From sequence record NC_073077.1: a stretch of DNA of 42,624 bases. The stretch is one strand, 5' to 3'. The notes under the pieces were generated by a model. The model saw only the letters and a program-made list of their open reading frames with translations, was not told the origin of the DNA and made no database searches. The position numbers and the translations under genes were made by a program. This DNA is from Escherichia phage vB_Eco_Maverick. Shown piece by piece: positions 10,300 to 38,757 of the stretch (position 1 is the stretch's first letter; every line of letters starts with the position of its first letter).

Positions 10300-10875
10300 C
10301 TAGTTTGAGTTTTCCCAGTCCATTTTGCGCCGCACCAGCGGGCTTTCGTAATATTCCTTGCCCTCAACTTCCACTAATGGCCAGTCATTAACAATCACGT
10401 ACGGCTCCGCGATATCTTCAATAACGCCGTGCGCGCTTTGTGGCCCTAACGACACACCCACCAGGATAACACCGGCAACGCGACGGGTAAGATACTCGCG
10501 AGCGCAACGCGCCTCTACCAGTCCGCGACGGATGCCGCTGGTGGCCTTAATTTCGTAGGTCCATACGGCATCGACCACATGCTCGCGGAAGTCGGGACCG
10601 GACTTTACCTTGCGCTTGCCGACCATGATAATATCGCCGCGGTCAATGGTATTGGCGCTAAACAGGCCGGTACGCATAAGCAAACCTTGCGGGATGCAAC
10701 TACGCCCGCCCGCCTGCCCTTCAAGGTACATGCCTGCAAACATTTCGCCAAGCACACCGACCAGTCGGCTTTGCTTGCACGCGTCAGACTTTAAGCGCCA
10801 CTGATCAAACTCGATGCTTGCTATCATTGCCGCCAGGTGGAATTGTTTACCGGATATTTCATATTCGCCGTACAT
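10300..10875 (-). CDS. hypothetical protein, possible PD-(D/E)xK-type nuclease
   Basis: 191-aa ORF; segment GDIIMVGKRK...VDAVWTYEIKA fits a D...E-x-K nuclease signature; assignment tentative. Confidence 0.45.
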   Translation of the reverse strand: MYGEYEISGKQFHLAAMIASIEFDQWRLKSDACKQSRLVGVLGEMFAGMYLEGQAGGRSCIPQGLLMRTGLFSANTIDRGDIIMVGKRKVKSGPDFREHVVDAVWTYEIKATSGIRRGLVEARCAREYLTRRVAGVILVGVSLGPQSAHGVIEDIAEPYVIVNDWPLVEVEGKEYYESPLVRRKMDWENSN

Positions 10876-10917
10876 CGTGTGGTCCTCATTGATGCGGGCC
10901 GAAGCCCGCGATTAGAA

Positions 10918-11439
10918 TTATTTCAGTGCGCCAGTCACCAGTGTTTTTTCCATGTTGCGGAAGTCTTCCGGCGTCATGAGGATTTTGGACCCGTCTTCGC
11001 CAGTTAGAACGACCATAGGCTGGACGTCTTGATCTGCAATGCCGAAATTGGCGGCTTTAACCATCTTGCCAGCCGATGCAGAAGGATGCCGCGTCCCCGC
11101 GGTGGCGATGGGCCAACCTTTAAGGCTATCGTATTGCGCTGCCGTCGTATCGACCTGAATCTCATCATGAACGGTCATGTAGGATTCGCCCAGCAAGGCC
11201 GCATACGCTACCAGGTCGACGATATTGTCTTCCTGGTGCTTACGGTGCTGGCGCACCAGCTTCAGGCAGATCAAGAAGGTCCAGGCTTCTTGCTCGGTAA
11301 GGTTGCGCCCGGTAAGCGCGTTAAACACGGCGGCGACCTGTTTAGCGCTGCGTTCGTCTTTCGCGTTGTCATAGCCGTTTTCTTTCCCGCGCTGTTCCAT
11401 AGTGGTGGCGGCGTTTTTGCAGTATTCGTATGCTTTCAT
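10918..11439 (-). CDS. hypothetical protein, possibly nucleotide-metabolism related
   Basis: 173-aa ORF with AAGGA Shine-Dalgarno; all-alpha-looking N-terminal region; no firm motif recognised. Confidence 0.45.
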   Translation of the reverse strand: MKAYEYCKNAATTMEQRGKENGYDNAKDERSAKQVAAVFNALTGRNLTEQEAWTFLICLKLVRQHRKHQEDNIVDLVAYAALLGESYMTVHDEIQVDTTAAQYDSLKGWPIATAGTRHPSASAGKMVKAANFGIADQDVQPMVVLTGEDGSKILMTPEDFRNMEKTLVTGALK

Positions 11440-11502
11440 TATGTGGTCCTTTTTATGGGAGGCCGTATTGCCTCCCGACGCGTTAACTATAGTGCAACCA
11501 AC

Positions 11503-11973
11503 CTATTGGTTGCAAGTGAATTTTGCAACGTTTATTGCGTAAATTTTCGGGACCAAATCGCTACACGCCCGACGAATTGCCGCGATGTTCTTCTCGCAAT
11601 CTTCAATGATGACCAGTTCCGACACGTCTGCATAGCAGACCATCTTGAACACGGCACACGCTTTAAACTCTGGCGGCGGGGTGTCATCCAGCATGTGGCG
11701 CATAAACAACCGGCCTGTCGGGAATACTTCCAGTTGCTCGGCGGTAGTCTCCCAACATTCGCGCTGCCGGTTAGTCAGATACGCTATCTCGAAGCCTTGC
11801 TCTTTGTACATGCGCAGCAGCGGCAGCATATCCATGTTCAGGTCTTCGCGTACGTGCGCTTTGTGCCACTTTGCCCAAAAGGTTGATTTCGTTTTTATCC
11901 CCGGCACCAGGTCGGCACGCGCATCGCTTGAGCCATTAATAACGCCATCCAAATCGCAAATCAGTAATTTCAT
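11503..11973 (-). CDS. HAD-superfamily phosphatase-like protein
   Basis: N-terminal MKLLICDLDGVI matches HAD motif I (DxDG); downstream Thr and acidic motifs present; 156 aa. Confidence 0.6.
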   Translation of the reverse strand: MKLLICDLDGVINGSSDARADLVPGIKTKSTFWAKWHKAHVREDLNMDMLPLLRMYKEQGFEIAYLTNRQRECWETTAEQLEVFPTGRLFMRHMLDDTPPPEFKACAVFKMVCYADVSELVIIEDCEKNIAAIRRACSDLVPKIYAINVAKFTCNQ

Positions 11974-12194
11974 TTTAAACTCTCAATAAGGGTGTAACGG
12001 GCGCTTCGCGCAGTAAAGGAGTTGCACACGAAATGGCAACGCTGAGTCATGACAAGCCATCCGGTGAGGTCAAGGCCCAGGATGTATTCGGGGCGAGAAG
12101 CGCGCACCACACGATCTCGGCGCGGGTCGATGTTATAGTCTCTTTGCATTCGGTCTACTACCGCAGGGTCGCGGTCAACGATTAAGATATTCAA
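11970..12194 (-). CDS. hypothetical protein
   Basis: 74-aa ORF translationally coupled to flanking minus-strand genes. Confidence 0.4.
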   Translation of the reverse strand: MNILIVDRDPAVVDRMQRDYNIDPRRDRVVRASRPEYILGLDLTGWLVMTQRCHFVCNSFTARSARYTLIESLK

Positions 12195-12660
12195 GGAGTT
12201 CTCCTTCGCTCATTATTTCAATTTGTGCGCTGCCGATTGGTGGCGCTTCGTCAAAGATTATCAATTGCTGGCACTTGTTATTGCTCGGCCCGACTTCACC
12301 GGAGACGGCGTGAATGAATCTAATCCGCCAGTCCAGAAGAATTATCAGGTTTGCAGTCTTCCGGGCAAGCCTCGCCCACTTCGTCGACGTGTCCTGATTC
12401 AGTAGCATGACAGTCCGTCGTCCGTGCGCGGCACACTCTACCCACGGCAGCGGATCGGAATACGGCGGATTGCACCACTTCCACCCTTTCAACTCGGACC
12501 AGTCCACATCAAGCGCGCTGTGTTCCGCCGTGAAGTAACGCGGTAGCAGATGATTGGCGTCGCTTGCCGCCATATCGTAACGGAATCGGTATTTCCGACG
12601 AAGCGGTTTGAATAAAGCTGGCGGCGTGCGCCAGCTATCTTTTTGCTCACTCTTCTGCAT
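12175..12660 (-). CDS. DNA N6-adenine methyltransferase (phage Dam-like)
   Basis: 161 aa containing the catalytic NPPY tetrapeptide (WCNPPYSD) and the overall shape of small phage Dam methyltransferases. Confidence 0.75.
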   Translation of the reverse strand: MQKSEQKDSWRTPPALFKPLRRKYRFRYDMAASDANHLLPRYFTAEHSALDVDWSELKGWKWCNPPYSDPLPWVECAAHGRRTVMLLNQDTSTKWARLARKTANLIILLDWRIRFIHAVSGEVGPSNNKCQQLIIFDEAPPIGSAQIEIMSEGELLEYLNR

Positions 12661-13111
12661 GACCTGGATCTATCGCGTATAAAGGGACTTTATTGCCGGT
12701 TTTCATAACGCGCTGGACGCGCTTTGACTCCTCGGCGCTCATTGGGCGCATATCAGTGCTATAACCACCGTTTGATGTGTGCCGCCACGCTATCAGCACC
12801 AGATCTTTCCGGTCGATCTTAGACTGGCGGCCCTTCGGTCGCACGTACGCCTCGGCCCGTTTGCAATGCTCGCGCAGACCTTCGGCAGTGATGCGGTTTA
12901 GCGAGACGGTGGTTGTGTACCCGGTGCGCTGCATAATACCCATCAACTCATACAGCAGTTCGAAGCGCTCCTCTAATTCCTTGCGCGCCTTCTCCTCGCC
13001 TTCATAGCTCGCCAGGTAGGTGTCCGCCAGCGCGTTCGCGCGTTCGGCCTGTTCGCGGGCTTCGAGGCATTGCGCGGCCCAGTAATTTTTCTCTTCTTGT
13101 AAAATTTTCAT
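12647..13111 (-). CDS. hypothetical protein (coiled-coil)
   Basis: 154-aa ORF overlapping its neighbours by a few nt; no motif recognised. Confidence 0.5.
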   Translation of the reverse strand: MKILQEEKNYWAAQCLEAREQAERANALADTYLASYEGEEKARKELEERFELLYELMGIMQRTGYTTTVSLNRITAEGLREHCKRAEAYVRPKGRQSKIDRKDLVLIAWRHTSNGGYSTDMRPMSAEESKRVQRVMKTGNKVPLYAIDPGHAEE

Positions 13112-13354
13112 TTATTTAATCTCCGTAGTGCGGATTTCCTTGCGAGGAATAAATTTGCCGTCTTTCTCGACCCAGCAAGTTCCGTAACGCCATTGGGTAT
13201 TACGGCCTGTTTGCTCGGCATATACGGTCTTGCATTCGTAGCGTTCCGTGTAGTAAATAGCCGCGGTAGGTACGAAAATACAAACGGCAAACATGAGGGT
13301 GAGTATCACCCAAAATCGAAGGTCGCCGTCGTAGTCGAAAAATAATGATCTCAT
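13112..13354 (-). CDS. small membrane protein
   Basis: 80 aa with one strongly hydrophobic helix (FWVILTLMFAVCIFVPTAAIYY); GGAG Shine-Dalgarno; own promoter upstream. Confidence 0.5.
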   Translation of the reverse strand: MRSLFFDYDGDLRFWVILTLMFAVCIFVPTAAIYYTERYECKTVYAEQTGRNTQWRYGTCWVEKDGKFIPRKEIRTTEIK

Positions 13355-13370
13355 TGTGTCGTCTCCGGGT

Positions 13371-13398
13371 ATTAAAAAGGGCGTCCAAACCGGACACC
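13371..13398 (-). terminator. minus-strand rho-independent terminator overlapping the downstream promoter
   Basis: On the minus strand gggtgtcc-ggttt-ggacgccc (one G-U pair) followed by ttttt; lies between the -10 box at 13402-13407 and the RBS of gene 13112-13354. Confidence 0.5.
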
Positions 13399-13401
13399 CT
13401 C

Positions 13402-13430
13402 AATATAATGCAACCAATCTAATTATGCAA
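13402..13430 (-). promoter_or_regulatory. sigma70-like promoter TTGCAT-N17-TATATT embedded in tandem ATTGGTTGCAT motifs
   Basis: Minus-strand reading aTTGGTTGCATaattagaTTGGTTGCATTATATT; -35 and -10 hexamers separated by 17 nt. Confidence 0.4.
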
Positions 13431-13435
13431 CCAAT

Positions 13436-13753
13436 TTACGAATAAAAATTTGGGTCGCGTGCAACGTCTACCAGATACAGATTGCTGATTCGGTTGCCGT
13501 AGTGCCCTGGGGTGCGCTGGCGGCACACAACGGCGAAGCCTGGAGGGATTGTATTGCCCGTCGCAATAATCCACGCCACGCGTGCGCCAGACAGCGTCTT
13601 GCCGTTGCATTCGATACGGGTTCCGCCATCGGCGGTGTTGATGTTGCCAATCTTGCATCCGGTGGACTTCAGACGGATGACTCCGGTTTTGCTGTCGTAG
13701 GTGAATAGCTGGTTAGTCATTGCGACCGAAAAATCAATGGCTTCGAATGTCAT
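13436..13753 (-). CDS. hypothetical protein, possibly a degenerate HNH/homing-endonuclease-like DNA-binding protein
   Basis: 105 aa, Gly/Cys-containing beta-rich sequence (GCKIGNINTADGGTRIECNGK...HYGNRISNLYL); weak resemblance only. Confidence 0.35.
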   Translation of the reverse strand: MTFEAIDFSVAMTNQLFTYDSKTGVIRLKSTGCKIGNINTADGGTRIECNGKTLSGARVAWIIATGNTIPPGFAVVCRQRTPGHYGNRISNLYLVDVARDPNFYS

Positions 13754-14445
13754 TTTAAATTTTCCTCGTTAACCGCTATCGCGAAGCCGCGCGGAGTGAG
13801 CGACCGGATTAATTTTGTGCGGGCTGATTTACCACCGAGGCGACTATACTGCTTCGAGTACCCTTTTTCAACGAATACAGGCTTTTTCTCTGGCATACGA
13901 AAGCCGTTGCCGGTCCATAAGCAGGTCCGCTTCGGATATGAATCGCGGGCGTTGATGTATTCCGGGAAGAGCGGGTGTACGTCATCCTCCGGCAGATAGC
14001 CCCCATACTCCCACGGATCAAACGAGTGGTCTGGCTTGCGCCACTGGGAGGAGAGCACACTGCGCGGATTCTCAATCATATATGGCACTTCGAAGAAGTC
14101 ACCCAGGTAAGCGGCGATCTTCGCGGTGCGCACCGCCTTAAGCTGAAAGGCTGGGTCTTTCGCACGCTTGCGCGGGAAAGCTGGCGCGCCGCTCACTGCC
14201 AGATCCGTACACGGAGGGAATGCATAGATGATATCCGGCGTACCGAAATCGCCATTCATCGCGCGGTCCACAAAGTCCATATCTATAAACTCATTGCGAT
14301 ATCGGATTCCGCGACCATAAATCCGGTAGTCAAGGTAAGACCCGTGATCGGCTTCGGAATAGTTGAAGCAATAACACTTATGCCCCATCTCGGCAGCACG
14401 CTCAATCATCAAGCCGCTGCCGTCAAACAATGACCAGATTATCAT
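13750..14445 (-). CDS. DNA cytosine-5 methyltransferase-like protein (short)
   Basis: Motif I-like SLFDGSG, motif IV-like FPPCTDL (catalytic Pro-Cys), motif VI-like MIENP in the canonical order; only 231 aa, so the target-recognition region would be minimal. Confidence 0.55.
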   Translation of the reverse strand: MIIWSLFDGSGLMIERAAEMGHKCYCFNYSEADHGSYLDYRIYGRGIRYRNEFIDMDFVDRAMNGDFGTPDIIYAFPPCTDLAVSGAPAFPRKRAKDPAFQLKAVRTAKIAAYLGDFFEVPYMIENPRSVLSSQWRKPDHSFDPWEYGGYLPEDDVHPLFPEYINARDSYPKRTCLWTGNGFRMPEKKPVFVEKGYSKQYSRLGGKSARTKLIRSLTPRGFAIAVNEENLK

Positions 14446-15866
14446 TTGCGCGCCTTCTTAGCTTTCATGTATTCCATCAAGTCGTCCTGAATGTCTCGCT
14501 TACTGTCGCGACGCTCGGCGACCAGTTCGTCCAGCGTCCCGCGAGCCTGGATAATGTAGACGAATACCGGTCGAGGGTGTCCCGCCTGCATCTGGCGAAC
14601 CGGCCCGATACGTTCAACGATCTGCGAAAAGTGCTCAAAGTTCCAGGTATCGGAGAAGATTGCCAGGTGATGTCCGCCATCCTGCAGGTTGAGGCCGTGG
14701 CCCGCCGACGCCGGGTGTGCAAACATGATGGGGATCTCGCCCCTGTTCCACGCTTCCATATCCTTATTGCCCTGCTTACCTTTACCCAACGCAACGCCGT
14801 GCGGAAATTTCTTCTTAAGACGAGCCAGGTCATGTTTATACTGATATGCGACGAGCAACGGCGCACCGTTCAACTCCTCCACGATACTTTCCAGCGCGTC
14901 CAGCTTCGCGTCGTGAATTTTCACCCACTCGTCGGTCCGTTCGCCGTCTTCGTCCACCTTATACACGGCCCCGGATGCAAGCTGAAGGCACTTAATTGTC
15001 TTCGATGCCGCGTTCGCCGCTTCCACTGTTCCGCTTTCCAGTTCGGCAAATAGCTCGCTTTCAAACTGGTCATAAATCTTGCGCGCTTTCTTCGGCAGGT
15101 CCACAACAACCGGCGTATAGATTGGCTTGTCGCACCCGAAGTATTCCGCCGCGTCAACGGTGAGGGATACATCTGACAGACGTTGTTGTATTTCTTTCTC
15201 GGAGTTCTTAAGCGGGGCGTGCTGCATCGTGAAGCTGCCAGGCTTAACAGGCTTGCTAATAAACCAGCGGTCCGTGAACGCCTTATAGCTACTGCCGAGG
15301 CGTTCGCCGCCGTCGACAAACCACGTCTGGCCCCATAGGTCTTTCAGCCCGTTAGGTGCGGGTGTGCCGGTAAGGTTAATCCAGCGCTTGACGTGCTTAT
15401 GAGCGATCGCTGCCAGCGCACGGGCGCGCTTACTTCCCTGCTTGCTTCTATAGCCTTTCAGCTTAGTGGATTCATCGGCAACCACGACCGTAAATGGCCA
15501 CTCGTCGCCGCAATACTCGACAAGCCACTCAACTACATCATAGTTAATACAAACCACGTTAGCGTCGCTCTCAAGCGCAGCGATGCGGTCCTTCTCTGAC
15601 CCAGTGCCGTCTACTACCAGCAAGGCTGGGAAGCGCCATTTCTCCTGTTCCGGGGGCCATGTACCGGACGCAACGCGCAGCGGGGCCAGCACCAGTACGC
15701 GGTCATCCTGGTTGGACAGGATGCCGGTCTGGAACATTTTATTCAGCGCCCACATGGTCGCGCCGGTTTTACCCGACCCCATTGTCGCCCAAATATTGCA
15801 GCGCTTATGCTTGAGGATGAACGCGGTTATCAACTTCTGATATTCGCGGCGTCGGAATCGTGCCAT
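14442..15866 (-). CDS. SNF2/DEAD-like superfamily II DNA helicase
   Basis: Walker A ATMGSGKTGAT, Walker B VVVADESTKL, later helicase motifs (LTGTPAPNGL...); start chosen at the ATG for MARFRRREY, the longest frame begins at GTG 15902. Confidence 0.8.
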   Translation of the reverse strand: MARFRRREYQKLITAFILKHKRCNIWATMGSGKTGATMWALNKMFQTGILSNQDDRVLVLAPLRVASGTWPPEQEKWRFPALLVVDGTGSEKDRIAALESDANVVCINYDVVEWLVEYCGDEWPFTVVVADESTKLKGYRSKQGSKRARALAAIAHKHVKRWINLTGTPAPNGLKDLWGQTWFVDGGERLGSSYKAFTDRWFISKPVKPGSFTMQHAPLKNSEKEIQQRLSDVSLTVDAAEYFGCDKPIYTPVVVDLPKKARKIYDQFESELFAELESGTVEAANAASKTIKCLQLASGAVYKVDEDGERTDEWVKIHDAKLDALESIVEELNGAPLLVAYQYKHDLARLKKKFPHGVALGKGKQGNKDMEAWNRGEIPIMFAHPASAGHGLNLQDGGHHLAIFSDTWNFEHFSQIVERIGPVRQMQAGHPRPVFVYIIQARGTLDELVAERRDSKRDIQDDLMEYMKAKKARK

Positions 15867-15870
15867 TTCT

Positions 15871-16104
15871 TTATTCCGCCTTTTTCCAGACTTCGGTTTC
15901 ACTGTTCCAGTTCCTTTTTGTGGCGTCGTAGTTGGTGGCGTGTCCGATGTGCACGCCGGTCGCCCGGAAGCTCTTAAATTTTTGCCAGCACACCGTCAAC
16001 GGCAGCGGGTAGTTCATGCCCGCGATAAACCATACGCGATCGCCTGGTTTGCATTCGCCCAGTGTGGTGAGTCGGTAGTGTTCTTTCATCGTCATGTCTC
16101 CCAA
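15871..16104 (-). CDS. hypothetical protein
   Basis: 77-aa ORF immediately upstream of the helicase gene on the same strand. Confidence 0.4.
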   Translation of the reverse strand: MGDMTMKEHYRLTTLGECKPGDRVWFIAGMNYPLPLTVCWQKFKSFRATGVHIGHATNYDATKRNWNSETEVWKKAE

Positions 16105-37656: not shown

Positions 37657-38757
37657 ATGTCTTTAACAGTGTTCCAGCGTAAACTCGTTACCGCGGTTAC
37701 GCAAATGATCCCCGACAACCTGAACGTTTTCAACGCCGCCGCCAATGGCGCTGTTGTTCTCGGTACTGGTGAAGTGCTGAAGGATGTTATTGAGAAAATG
37801 TCCGTAGGCTTGATCGCCAACCTCGTTACCGACCGTAACGCCTACGCCCCCGTCGGCACTCCGGCAACCGCGAAAGTTCTGGCGCGTATGCTGACCAACT
37901 CGGTTAACCTTTCCGCAAAAGTGGGTCCGGTAGCAATCACTAAGGCTATGATGGCTAAGATCGAAACCAACGTTAACAGCGTTGCGGCTGAGATTGCGGC
38001 ACAGGCTACTCAAGCGATTATGCTGCACTACCTGAAAGCTGGTATCGGCGCAAGTAAAGCGGCGATCGAAAGCAACGCAGCGGCAAAATACACCCAACCG
38101 GCGCGCGTTGATGGTGTTGGTGGTCGCACCTTCCCGACCCTGGCAGACTTCCCGCTGGCGGCTTCCAAGTTCGGCGATCAGGCGTCTTTGATTAAATCCT
38201 GGTTTATGGACGGCGTTACCTGGGCAAACTTCATTGCGTACCAGGCACTCCCTTCCGCTGAACAGGTATTCGCAATTGGCGATCTACAGGTAATGGGTGA
38301 TGGCCTGGGCCGTCGATTCATTATCTCCGATGCCGCTGCCGATGCTATGGGTGCTGGTAACATGCTGGGTCTGGTTCCTGGCGCGGTTGCAGTTACCACC
38401 AACGGCCTCGATATGCTGGCGCAGGAGAAAGGCGGTAACGAGAACATCGAACGCTGGTGGCAGGGCGAGTTCGACTTCAACGTGGCCGTTAAAGGCTACC
38501 GTCTGAAGGCGTCCGCTCGTACCCCGATCGAAGGTGTGCGCTCGTTCAAACTGGACGATATTACCACTTCCGCTAACTGGGAACTGGACCAGGGCCAGGT
38601 AGACAACGCACCGGCAACCGTGCAGGACGTTGGCGCTGTGGGTGATGGCGATACTAAAGGCCGTCGTAAGACCCAGGCCGCACAGGCAGTGCCTACCCGT
38701 CACATCAAGGAAACCGCTGGCGTACTGGTTACGCTGACGGCGACTACCGCGTCTTAA
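37657..38757 (+). CDS. major capsid protein
   Basis: 366-aa ORF after the scaffold, followed by a strong terminator; composition typical of HK97-fold capsid proteins. Confidence 0.8.
   Translation: MSLTVFQRKLVTAVTQMIPDNLNVFNAAANGAVVLGTGEVLKDVIEKMSVGLIANLVTDRNAYAPVGTPATAKVLARMLTNSVNLSAKVGPVAITKAMMAKIETNVNSVAAEIAAQATQAIMLHYLKAGIGASKAAIESNAAAKYTQPARVDGVGGRTFPTLADFPLAASKFGDQASLIKSWFMDGVTWANFIAYQALPSAEQVFAIGDLQVMGDGLGRRFIISDAAADAMGAGNMLGLVPGAVAVTTNGLDMLAQEKGGNENIERWWQGEFDFNVAVKGYRLKASARTPIEGVRSFKLDDITTSANWELDQGQVDNAPATVQDVGAVGDGDTKGRRKTQAAQAVPTRHIKETAGVLVTLTATTAS

Follow-up and report, generated by a model that had tools for sequence, protein, structure and literature searches.

Two predicted DNA methyltransferases and a HAD-type phosphatase in a conserved gene block of Dhillonvirus phages

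Introduction

Phage K42, a strain of KarlJaspers, has a "Dcm" gene of 711 bp; when this gene is lost, the phage escapes from retron Ec86 (Eco1). Expression of this gene increases the amount of 5-methylcytosine (5mC) in multicopy single-stranded DNA (msDNA), as measured by LC-MS (liquid chromatography coupled to mass spectrometry), the C82A/E128A/K175A/K176A mutant is inactive, and mutation of either C of CCTGG in msDNA abolishes the Ec86 defence; 34 of the 35 Ec86-sensitive phages in that study encoded such a Dcm. Here we consider a homologue of this gene in Escherichia phage vB_Eco_Maverick (NC_073077.1; the whole analysed stretch of 42,624 nucleotides is further called the window), together with two genes that lie near it on the same strand and encode a Dam-like N6-adenine DNA methyltransferase and a phosphatase of the haloacid dehalogenase (HAD) type.

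For each of the latter two proteins there also are described counterparts. The phage Dam family (HP2 dam, HK97 gp62, Stx-phage dam, T1-like Dam) shares with the window protein a strong Pfam match, the NPPY motif and the small size, although the identity to the named examples is only 27–39%. The counterpart of the HAD protein is T4 Pnkp, where a kinase is fused to a phosphatase, whereas in the window the phosphatase-type domain stands alone. The genes themselves are not new: published descriptions of Dhillonvirus phages include adenine and cytosine methyltransferase genes, and more than 100 public Dhillonvirus genomes in GenBank already bear such annotations, for example, "putative C-5 cytosine DNA methylase" and "probable DNA methylase" in phage vB_Eco_CS16, or "Dcm-like C5 cytosine methyltransferase", "Dam-like N6-adenine methyltransferase", "putative phosphatase" and "putative homing endonuclease" in the BASEL phage Oekolampad.

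A sequence-only reading of the window suggested that the three enzymes, interleaved with small proteins, form an anti-restriction or DNA-modification module. From the identities, motifs and folds of the genes and their products, together with homology and the statistics of gene neighbourhoods computed here, we come to a different view: the locus probably comprises three enzymes without a detectable functional link, that is, a Dam, a compact 5mC enzyme and an end-repair-type phosphatase, accompanied by accessory genes.

Results

Gene neighbourhoods

All three genes are on the minus strand: the HAD-like phosphatase gene at 11503-11973 (156 aa), the Dam-like gene at 12175-12660 (161 aa) and the gene of the compact C5-cytosine methyltransferase at 13750-14445 (231 aa). 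The limits given for them in the sequence-only reading, all within 3 kb, match the open reading frames (ORFs). The 3.1-kb region is 100% identical to that of Escherichia phage vB_Eco_CS16 (LR999870.1, genus Dhillonvirus), and about 150 Dhillonvirus records retain the whole block with a DNA identity of 90-100%, dozens of genomes being at 90-95%; at least 80% of the region is covered by 140 records. This conservation, as well as the score of the Dam-like protein (120 bits against PF05869) and the 2893 homologous clusters of the C5-like one, identifies the ORFs of the block as real genes rather than chance ORFs. The region lies at the distal end of the Dhillonvirus leftward replication and DNA-metabolism gene block: a run of large minus-strand ORFs extends from about 23.0 kb down to 10.3 kb, and the same run holds genes annotated as DNA polymerase I, Holliday-junction resolvase and helicase. 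A consensus scan of the region yielded no strong internal promoters or terminators, the weak matches being barely above those in shuffled sequences.

To compare the gene neighbourhoods, we took 80 viral contigs that carry a relative of the C5 gene, together with 10 kb on either side of it, and used each of the ten proteins of the block as a query against them. Fourteen of the loci were of the Dhillonvirus type and 66 were other loci. The HAD gene was found in none of the 66, and one Dhillonvirus-type locus (L016) lacks both the HAD gene and the gene of the 74-aa protein while retaining both methylases. Dam homologues, on the contrary, were present within 10 kb of the C5 gene in half of the other loci (33 of 66), usually 6-9 kb away and on the opposite strand; in L028, L071 and L080 the two genes are adjacent. 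The phylogenetic spread also differs, as relatives of the HAD protein are limited to 190 phage records, of which about 150 are at the Dhillonvirus level, versus 1516 records for the C5 enzyme and 1750 for Dam. Thus, given the absence of the HAD gene from all non-Dhillonvirus C5 loci and from L016, the three-gene "module" is the Dhillonvirus gene order rather than a functional unit, although the two methylases often share a genome.

The alternative is that the HAD protein, Dam, the C5-like enzyme and the small ORFs do constitute one anti-restriction or DNA-(hyper)modification module, in which the phosphatase would process precursors or by-products. It would account for the tight packing of the genes, which share a strand and overlap at their start and stop codons, and for their joint conservation in 13 of the 14 Dhillonvirus-type loci. 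Moreover, a published defence senses N6-methyl-dAMP (m6-dAMP) from Dam-methylated DNA, so a phage nucleotidase removing modified deoxynucleoside monophosphates (dNMPs) is conceivable. Still, we consider such a module very improbable, not only because of the distribution of the HAD gene described above, but also because the fold and the distant relatives of the HAD protein point to the Pnkp 3'-phosphatase domain and to RNA/DNA end healing, as shown below. In addition, post-replicative methylation does not need a phosphatase, as is established enzymology, and no modification family besides the two methylases was matched by the ten proteins encoded at 10300-15902 in Pfam, PHROG or NCBIfam, hydroxymethylases, dNMP kinases, glycosyltransferases and amidotransferases included; nor are modification genes annotated in the adjoining genes of CS16. 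Hence, a place of the HAD protein in the proposed module is not supported, while a self-methylation role is reasonable for the methylases.

An SNF2 helicase gene (14442-15902, minus strand) is situated directly upstream of the C5-like gene. The same position relative to the C5 gene is seen in Dhillonvirus and in L028, whereas in ten non-Dhillonvirus loci (L020, L023, L026, L032, L042, L043, L045, L052, L056, L072) an SNF2-type homologue (64-67% identity) is located directly downstream of it. The adjacency thus recurs in two arrangements.

The HAD phosphatase

All four HAD motifs are intact in the 156-aa protein: D7-L-D9-G-V11 (DLDGV, encoded at 11941-11955, minus strand), T67 (S in relatives), K104 and E124-D125; D7, D9, K104 and D125 are invariant among the relatives. 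In Pfam the protein has only sub-threshold matches, to Acid_phosphat_B and HAD_PNKP (PF25109, 13.5 bits versus the gathering score of 27.6), while distant relatives collected with the family profile pass PF25109 with 64-165 bits. A structural-similarity test showed that the fold resembles the phosphatase domain of T4 Pnkp.

Public names of this protein conflict, being "polynucleotide kinase", "putative nucleotidase", "putative phosphatase" and "hypothetical protein". It matches PHROG 415, labelled "polynucleotide kinase". No P-loop 5'-kinase domain was found in the protein, as all 156 aa belong to the HAD domain; without a kinase domain the protein is not a polynucleotide kinase, and this label, used in PHROG 415 and some GenBank records, is wrong for it.

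A search of 1.84 billion representative sequences with the family profile produced 431 relatives, and most of the best 150 are stand-alone proteins of 150-175 aa. Among the longer relatives that were scanned, four combine an AAA_33 kinase with HAD_PNKP, one has a tandem HAD_PNKP, and one is a fusion of HAD_PNKP with a 2'-5' RNA ligase/LigT domain; judging by their domain composition, these are end-healing architectures. The best reading of the window protein is therefore a putative stand-alone polynucleotide 3'-phosphatase of the Pnkp type (cf. T4 Pnkp and bacterial Pnkp1; PF25109), as its relatives and predicted fold suggest. A nucleotidase is a possible, less favoured alternative.

Two other roles were considered and dropped. 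Removal of modified dNMPs as danger signals (m6-dAMP sensing by PUA-Cal-HAD) is supported by nothing in our data and is retained only as a part of the module alternative. An end-healing and sealing pair with the 154-aa protein annotated as "DNA ligase" was rejected, as the latter shows no ligase similarity.

The compact C5-cytosine methyltransferase

The sequence-only reading listed the motifs NPPY, FxGxG, PC and ENx, and all of them are found when the exact coordinates are translated. In the 231-aa protein these are motif I, F7-D-G9-S-G11 (AdoMet binding; 14413-14427), motif IV, Pro-Cys with the catalytic C79 (14209-14214), and motif VI, E125-N126-P127 (14065-14073), a variant of the canonical E-N-V; alignment also reveals a motif IX-like core, I-R-S-L-T-P-R-G, at residues 213-220 (13786-13809, all minus strand). 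In the alignment of 26 family members F7, G9, S10, G11, P77-P78-C79-T80, E125-N126-P127 and I213-R-S-L-T-P-R-G220 are invariant. At the position of motif VIII (Q-x-R-x-R) only W135-R136-x-P138 is conserved. As the protein terminates 11 residues past the motif IX-like core, motif X cannot be present, and there is no GNxV. What appears to stand in for the canonical target recognition domain (TRD) is a conserved insertion of 31 residues, located between the predicted strands 140-142 and 174-179, together with another 35 residues or so.

Direct sequence searches gave nothing significant for this protein in Pfam (E<=0.1, PF00145 included), NCBIfam or PDB sequences (phmmer), the only match being PHROG 757, "DNA methyltransferase" (E 6e-83). 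Therefore, the assignment rests on the motifs, the fold and the characterised homologue. The family consists of 2893 clusters at 90% identity, nearly all of 225-245 aa, and is present in 1516 phage records that include Dhillonvirus, Drexlerviridae (Tls), rV5-like myoviruses, phiKO2 and many Klebsiella phages. Its members approach PF00145 only in part: 19 of 26 relatives touch this profile at E<=1, and of seven scanned individually three pass its gathering score (22 bits), only over profile positions 4-94 of 324, which correspond to motifs I-IV. Similarly, the family profile against PDB sequences reaches only motifs I-IV of M.HaeIII (E 0.41). The fold, by contrast, is that of a C5 methyltransferase, with DNMT3A/B as the best structural matches.

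With the canonical enzymes (PF00145: M.HhaI, M.HaeIII, E. coli Dcm, DNMT3A/B) the protein has in common the class I AdoMet-methyltransferase fold, FxGxG, Pro-Cys, ENx and the R-x-L-T-P-R core of motif IX. Unlike them, the compact family has no motif X, is detectable by profiles only at motifs I-IV, and carries the family-specific segments GGYLP..D..HP..P, D-Y-K-T-W and LGGK instead of the recognition region. In length the protein falls short of M.HhaI (327 aa) by about 100 residues and reaches roughly half of E. coli Dcm (472 aa); DNMT3A/B, its closest structural matches, are the canonical members with the smallest recognition domain. Thus, the suggestion that the window contains two DNA methyltransferases holds, and their chemistry differs, one being a PF05869 Dam and the other a C5-like enzyme, and so does the suggestion that the latter is non-canonical, as it has neither motif X nor a PF00145, NCBIfam or PDB match of its own.

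The annotation "Dcm-like" needs a comment. E. coli Dcm has both terminal motifs, IX (RRLTPRECARLMGF) and X (QFGNSVVVPV), and its motif IX core, R-x-L-T-P-R-E, resembles that of the compact family. However, local alignments with E. coli Dcm do not exceed those of shuffled sequences, and when the family profile is compared with E. coli K-12 Dcm by hhalign, only 25 columns around motif IV are covered, with an insignificant E of 0.17. Given the latter value, "Dcm-like" is a functional nickname rather than a sequence relationship. In effect, this is the HHpred-type check that had been suggested for the 231-aa protein: the C5 motifs and fold were recovered, while the profile match to Dcm was not significant.

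The enzyme class of the protein is established for a close relative. The 711-bp gene of K42 corresponds to bas06_0055 of KarlJaspers (236 aa), the K42 protein being nearly identical to the KarlJaspers one; the latter shows 53% identity to the window protein along its entire length (E 8e-87). The two share the family, the length, the PHROG 757 clade and the catalytic Cys, Glu and basic pair, as C79, E125, K172 and R173 of the window protein align with the four mutated K42 residues (C82, E128, K175, K176). Catalytic activity has thus been shown in the literature for this homologue (5mC on msDNA in vivo, by LC-MS) rather than for the window protein, for which it may be expected by analogy. The phages differ in genus and gene neighbourhood (Drexlerviridae versus Dhillonvirus): in KarlJaspers the Dam-like and Dcm-like genes are about 7 kb apart, and a "putative polynucleotide kinase" gene lies another 5 kb on; a search of the KarlJaspers genome with the window HAD protein gave no match, the product of that gene included.

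The CCWGG specificity of the homologue is not rigorously shown, since it has been taken from the Dcm name and the msDNA motif mutants. Hence we also weighed the possibility that the window protein is not a plain CCWGG 5mC enzyme, having instead a different specificity, transferring a different group (e.g. carboxymethyl) or acting on a different substrate. This seems rather improbable, as the catalytic residues are invariant across the family, 53% full-length identity makes changed chemistry unlikely, and in the K42 experiments 5mC appeared on msDNA only with the active homologue, whereas a mutation of either C of CCTGG left no defence. A related and less remote suggestion concerns the recognition mode: the ~230-aa PHROG 757 clade could be a genuinely minimal C5 methyltransferase, with the full catalytic core, no motif X and about 65 family-specific residues in place of the TRD, that recognizes its target in a non-canonical way (e.g. 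as a DNMT3-like dimer on a palindromic site) and perhaps is not strictly specific to CCWGG. We regard it as possible, if somewhat doubtful.

The Dam-like adenine methyltransferase

The 161-aa protein is clearly assigned, by its sequence matches, to the phage Dam family of N6-adenine DNA methyltransferases. It matches PF05869 over residues 3-142 (E 8e-35, 120.4 bits versus the gathering score of 28.1) as well as PHROG 111, and has the catalytic N-P-P-Y at residues 64-67 (12460-12471, minus strand). The phage records with homologues number 1750, and HP2 dam, HK97 gp62 and Stx-phage dam are among these homologues. The score against TIGR01712 (83.6 bits) is under the equivalog cutoff of 97.05, hence the target sequence can only be inferred. 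Characterised members of PF05869/TIGR01712 methylate GATC, and GATC is the likely target of the window enzyme as well. We also considered whether PF05869 contains the non-specific adenine methylases Hia5 and Hin1523, which would undermine this assignment; it was dropped, as these are DPPY enzymes similar to Dam, DpnM and T4Dam, according to the Hia5 paper.

Restriction sites and the role of the methyltransferases

In the whole window GATC is mildly depleted (150 sites versus about 197 expected, 0.76 of expectation, z -3.4), whereas CCWGG is not avoided (142 sites versus 151 by the maximal-order Markov expectation). The frequent CCWGG fits protection by modification. Several other sites are depleted, namely AAGCTT (0; 14-17 expected), CTAG (19; about 50), GGCC (165; about 232) and CTGCAG (4; 11-14), which we regard as signs of restriction-site avoidance. 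There is also a cluster of CCWGG at 38139-38377, in the structural-gene half (at least five sites within 200 bp, two overlapping windows).

Self-methylation against restriction is a reasonable role for the two methylases. The protection would be narrow: Dam marks block only enzymes of the MboI/DpnII type (GATC), and Dcm marks only those of the EcoRII type (CCWGG), while the systems tested in BASEL target neither sequence. Since this is so, the BASEL observation that Dhillonvirus phages are comparatively sensitive to the type I and II restriction systems tested agrees with such narrow protection. We found no published methylomes or restriction-digest evidence for Dhillonvirus DNA in the literature.

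The same sensitivity could be read otherwise, namely, that the methylases are active but serve mainly the phage's own biology (packaging, replication, expression control or mismatch-repair evasion), the anti-restriction effect being secondary. Consistent with this, related Drexlerviridae show no simple link between methylase genes and resistance; common hosts of the E. coli K-12 type already supply Dam and Dcm, as is well established; the methylase genes lie within the replication block beside helicase and polymerase genes; and the SNF2 helicase homologue directly adjoins the C5 gene in two arrangements across lineages. However, as the BASEL systems target neither GATC nor CCWGG, that test does not bear on protection. 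Further, we found no GATC clusters in the window that would suggest a regulatory site, and K42 escapers without Dcm are viable, hence the gene is dispensable in the laboratory. On balance, a mainly internal role is unlikely, and we prefer protection against restriction as a plausible function of the marks.

Interleaved and adjacent genes

Several gene junctions in the block are ATGA overlaps. The start codon of the C5-like gene overlaps the stop codon of the SNF2 helicase gene in this way, and so does the start of a 105-aa ORF (13436-13753) with the stop of the C5-like gene. It is followed by an 80-aa ORF (13112-13354), encoding a small protein with a hydrophobic stretch, and a 154-aa ORF (12647-13111), whose product has a coiled-coil-like N-terminus. 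A 74-aa ORF with a TTG start (11970-12194) overlaps the 3' end of the Dam-like gene by 20 nt and the start of the HAD gene by 4 nt. All these ORFs belong to the minus strand. What lies between the two methylase genes varies: the 80-aa gene is detectable in only five of the 14 Dhillonvirus-type loci, and the 154-aa gene is absent from two.

The description of these ORFs as small unknown proteins does not fully apply to the 105-aa ORF (PHROG 99, HNH endonuclease family, E 7e-16; no match in Pfam), annotated as "putative homing endonuclease" in Oekolampad. HNH_3-type proteins have the motif dH...DNR..NL, where this ORF reads VC..GHYGNRISNL; judging from the sequence, it is probably a truncated or degenerate remnant of a homing endonuclease between the C5-methylase gene and the next genes. 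The label "DNA ligase" (PHROG 10530, RAST) on the 154-aa protein is unsupported, as searches produced no ligase similarity and only chance matches to coiled-coil proteins and NusA.

The gene just downstream of the HAD gene (10918-11439, minus strand) encodes a DUF6378 protein, for which the PHROG label "phosphofructokinase" looks spurious. In L071 (8611-10744) and L080 (5400-7593) DUF6378 adjoins a Dam homologue and lies some 0.8-1 kb upstream of the compact C5 gene. The order in L071 is Dam, DUF6378, a 167-aa membrane protein and C5, with a RusA-like ORF downstream; the latter, by eye, suggests a lambdoid phage. Next to the DUF6378 gene in the window, a 191-aa protein (10300-10875, minus strand) belongs to PHROG 10558 ("gp26" of Sodalis phage SO-1); Pfam, NCBIfam and PDB yielded no match for it, and a D...E-I-K pattern noticed by eye only recalls PD-(D/E)XK nucleases. 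Searches of PDB sequences with the DUF6378 and 191-aa proteins gave nothing usable.

Discussion

We suggest the following scheme. The 161-aa Dam would methylate adenine at N6 in the phage DNA, presumably at GATC. The 231-aa protein, by analogy with its homologue, would be an active, unusually compact C5 enzyme, with the seven-strand AdoMet-methyltransferase core, FDGSG, Pro-Cys79 and Glu125-Asn-Pro, and with the recognition module reduced to the 31-residue insertion, predicted to lie between strands 6 and 7, and some 35 residues beyond strand 7, which end with a motif IX-like helix. Most likely its product is 5mC at CCWGG sites of the Dcm type, in line with the report on the Drexlerviridae homologue. 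Together, the two enzymes could impose the full Dam+/Dcm+ pattern on newly replicated phage DNA. The HAD protein probably acts on damaged nucleic acid, turning 3'-phosphate or 2',3'-cyclic-phosphate ends into 3'-OH. What we infer in this scheme are the sequences targeted, the role in protection and the substrate of the HAD protein.

As the genes were annotated before, the discovery value of these observations is small, and their practical value is corrective, concerning the HAD, "DNA ligase" and "Dcm-like" labels. For the HAD protein, neither "polynucleotide kinase" nor "nucleotidase", nor a role in DNA modification, is supported. The minimal C5 architecture may be of interest to methyltransferase engineers if its specificity and mechanism were determined.

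For the phage, the marks would protect only against the enzymes that they block, and at the same time could expose it to defences that sense methylation, such as retron Ec86. By homology to the K42 Dcm, the Dhillonvirus C5 enzyme is likely to be a trigger of Ec86-type sensors. Thus, in the conflict between the phage and its host the compact C5 enzyme may be both a protection and a liability.

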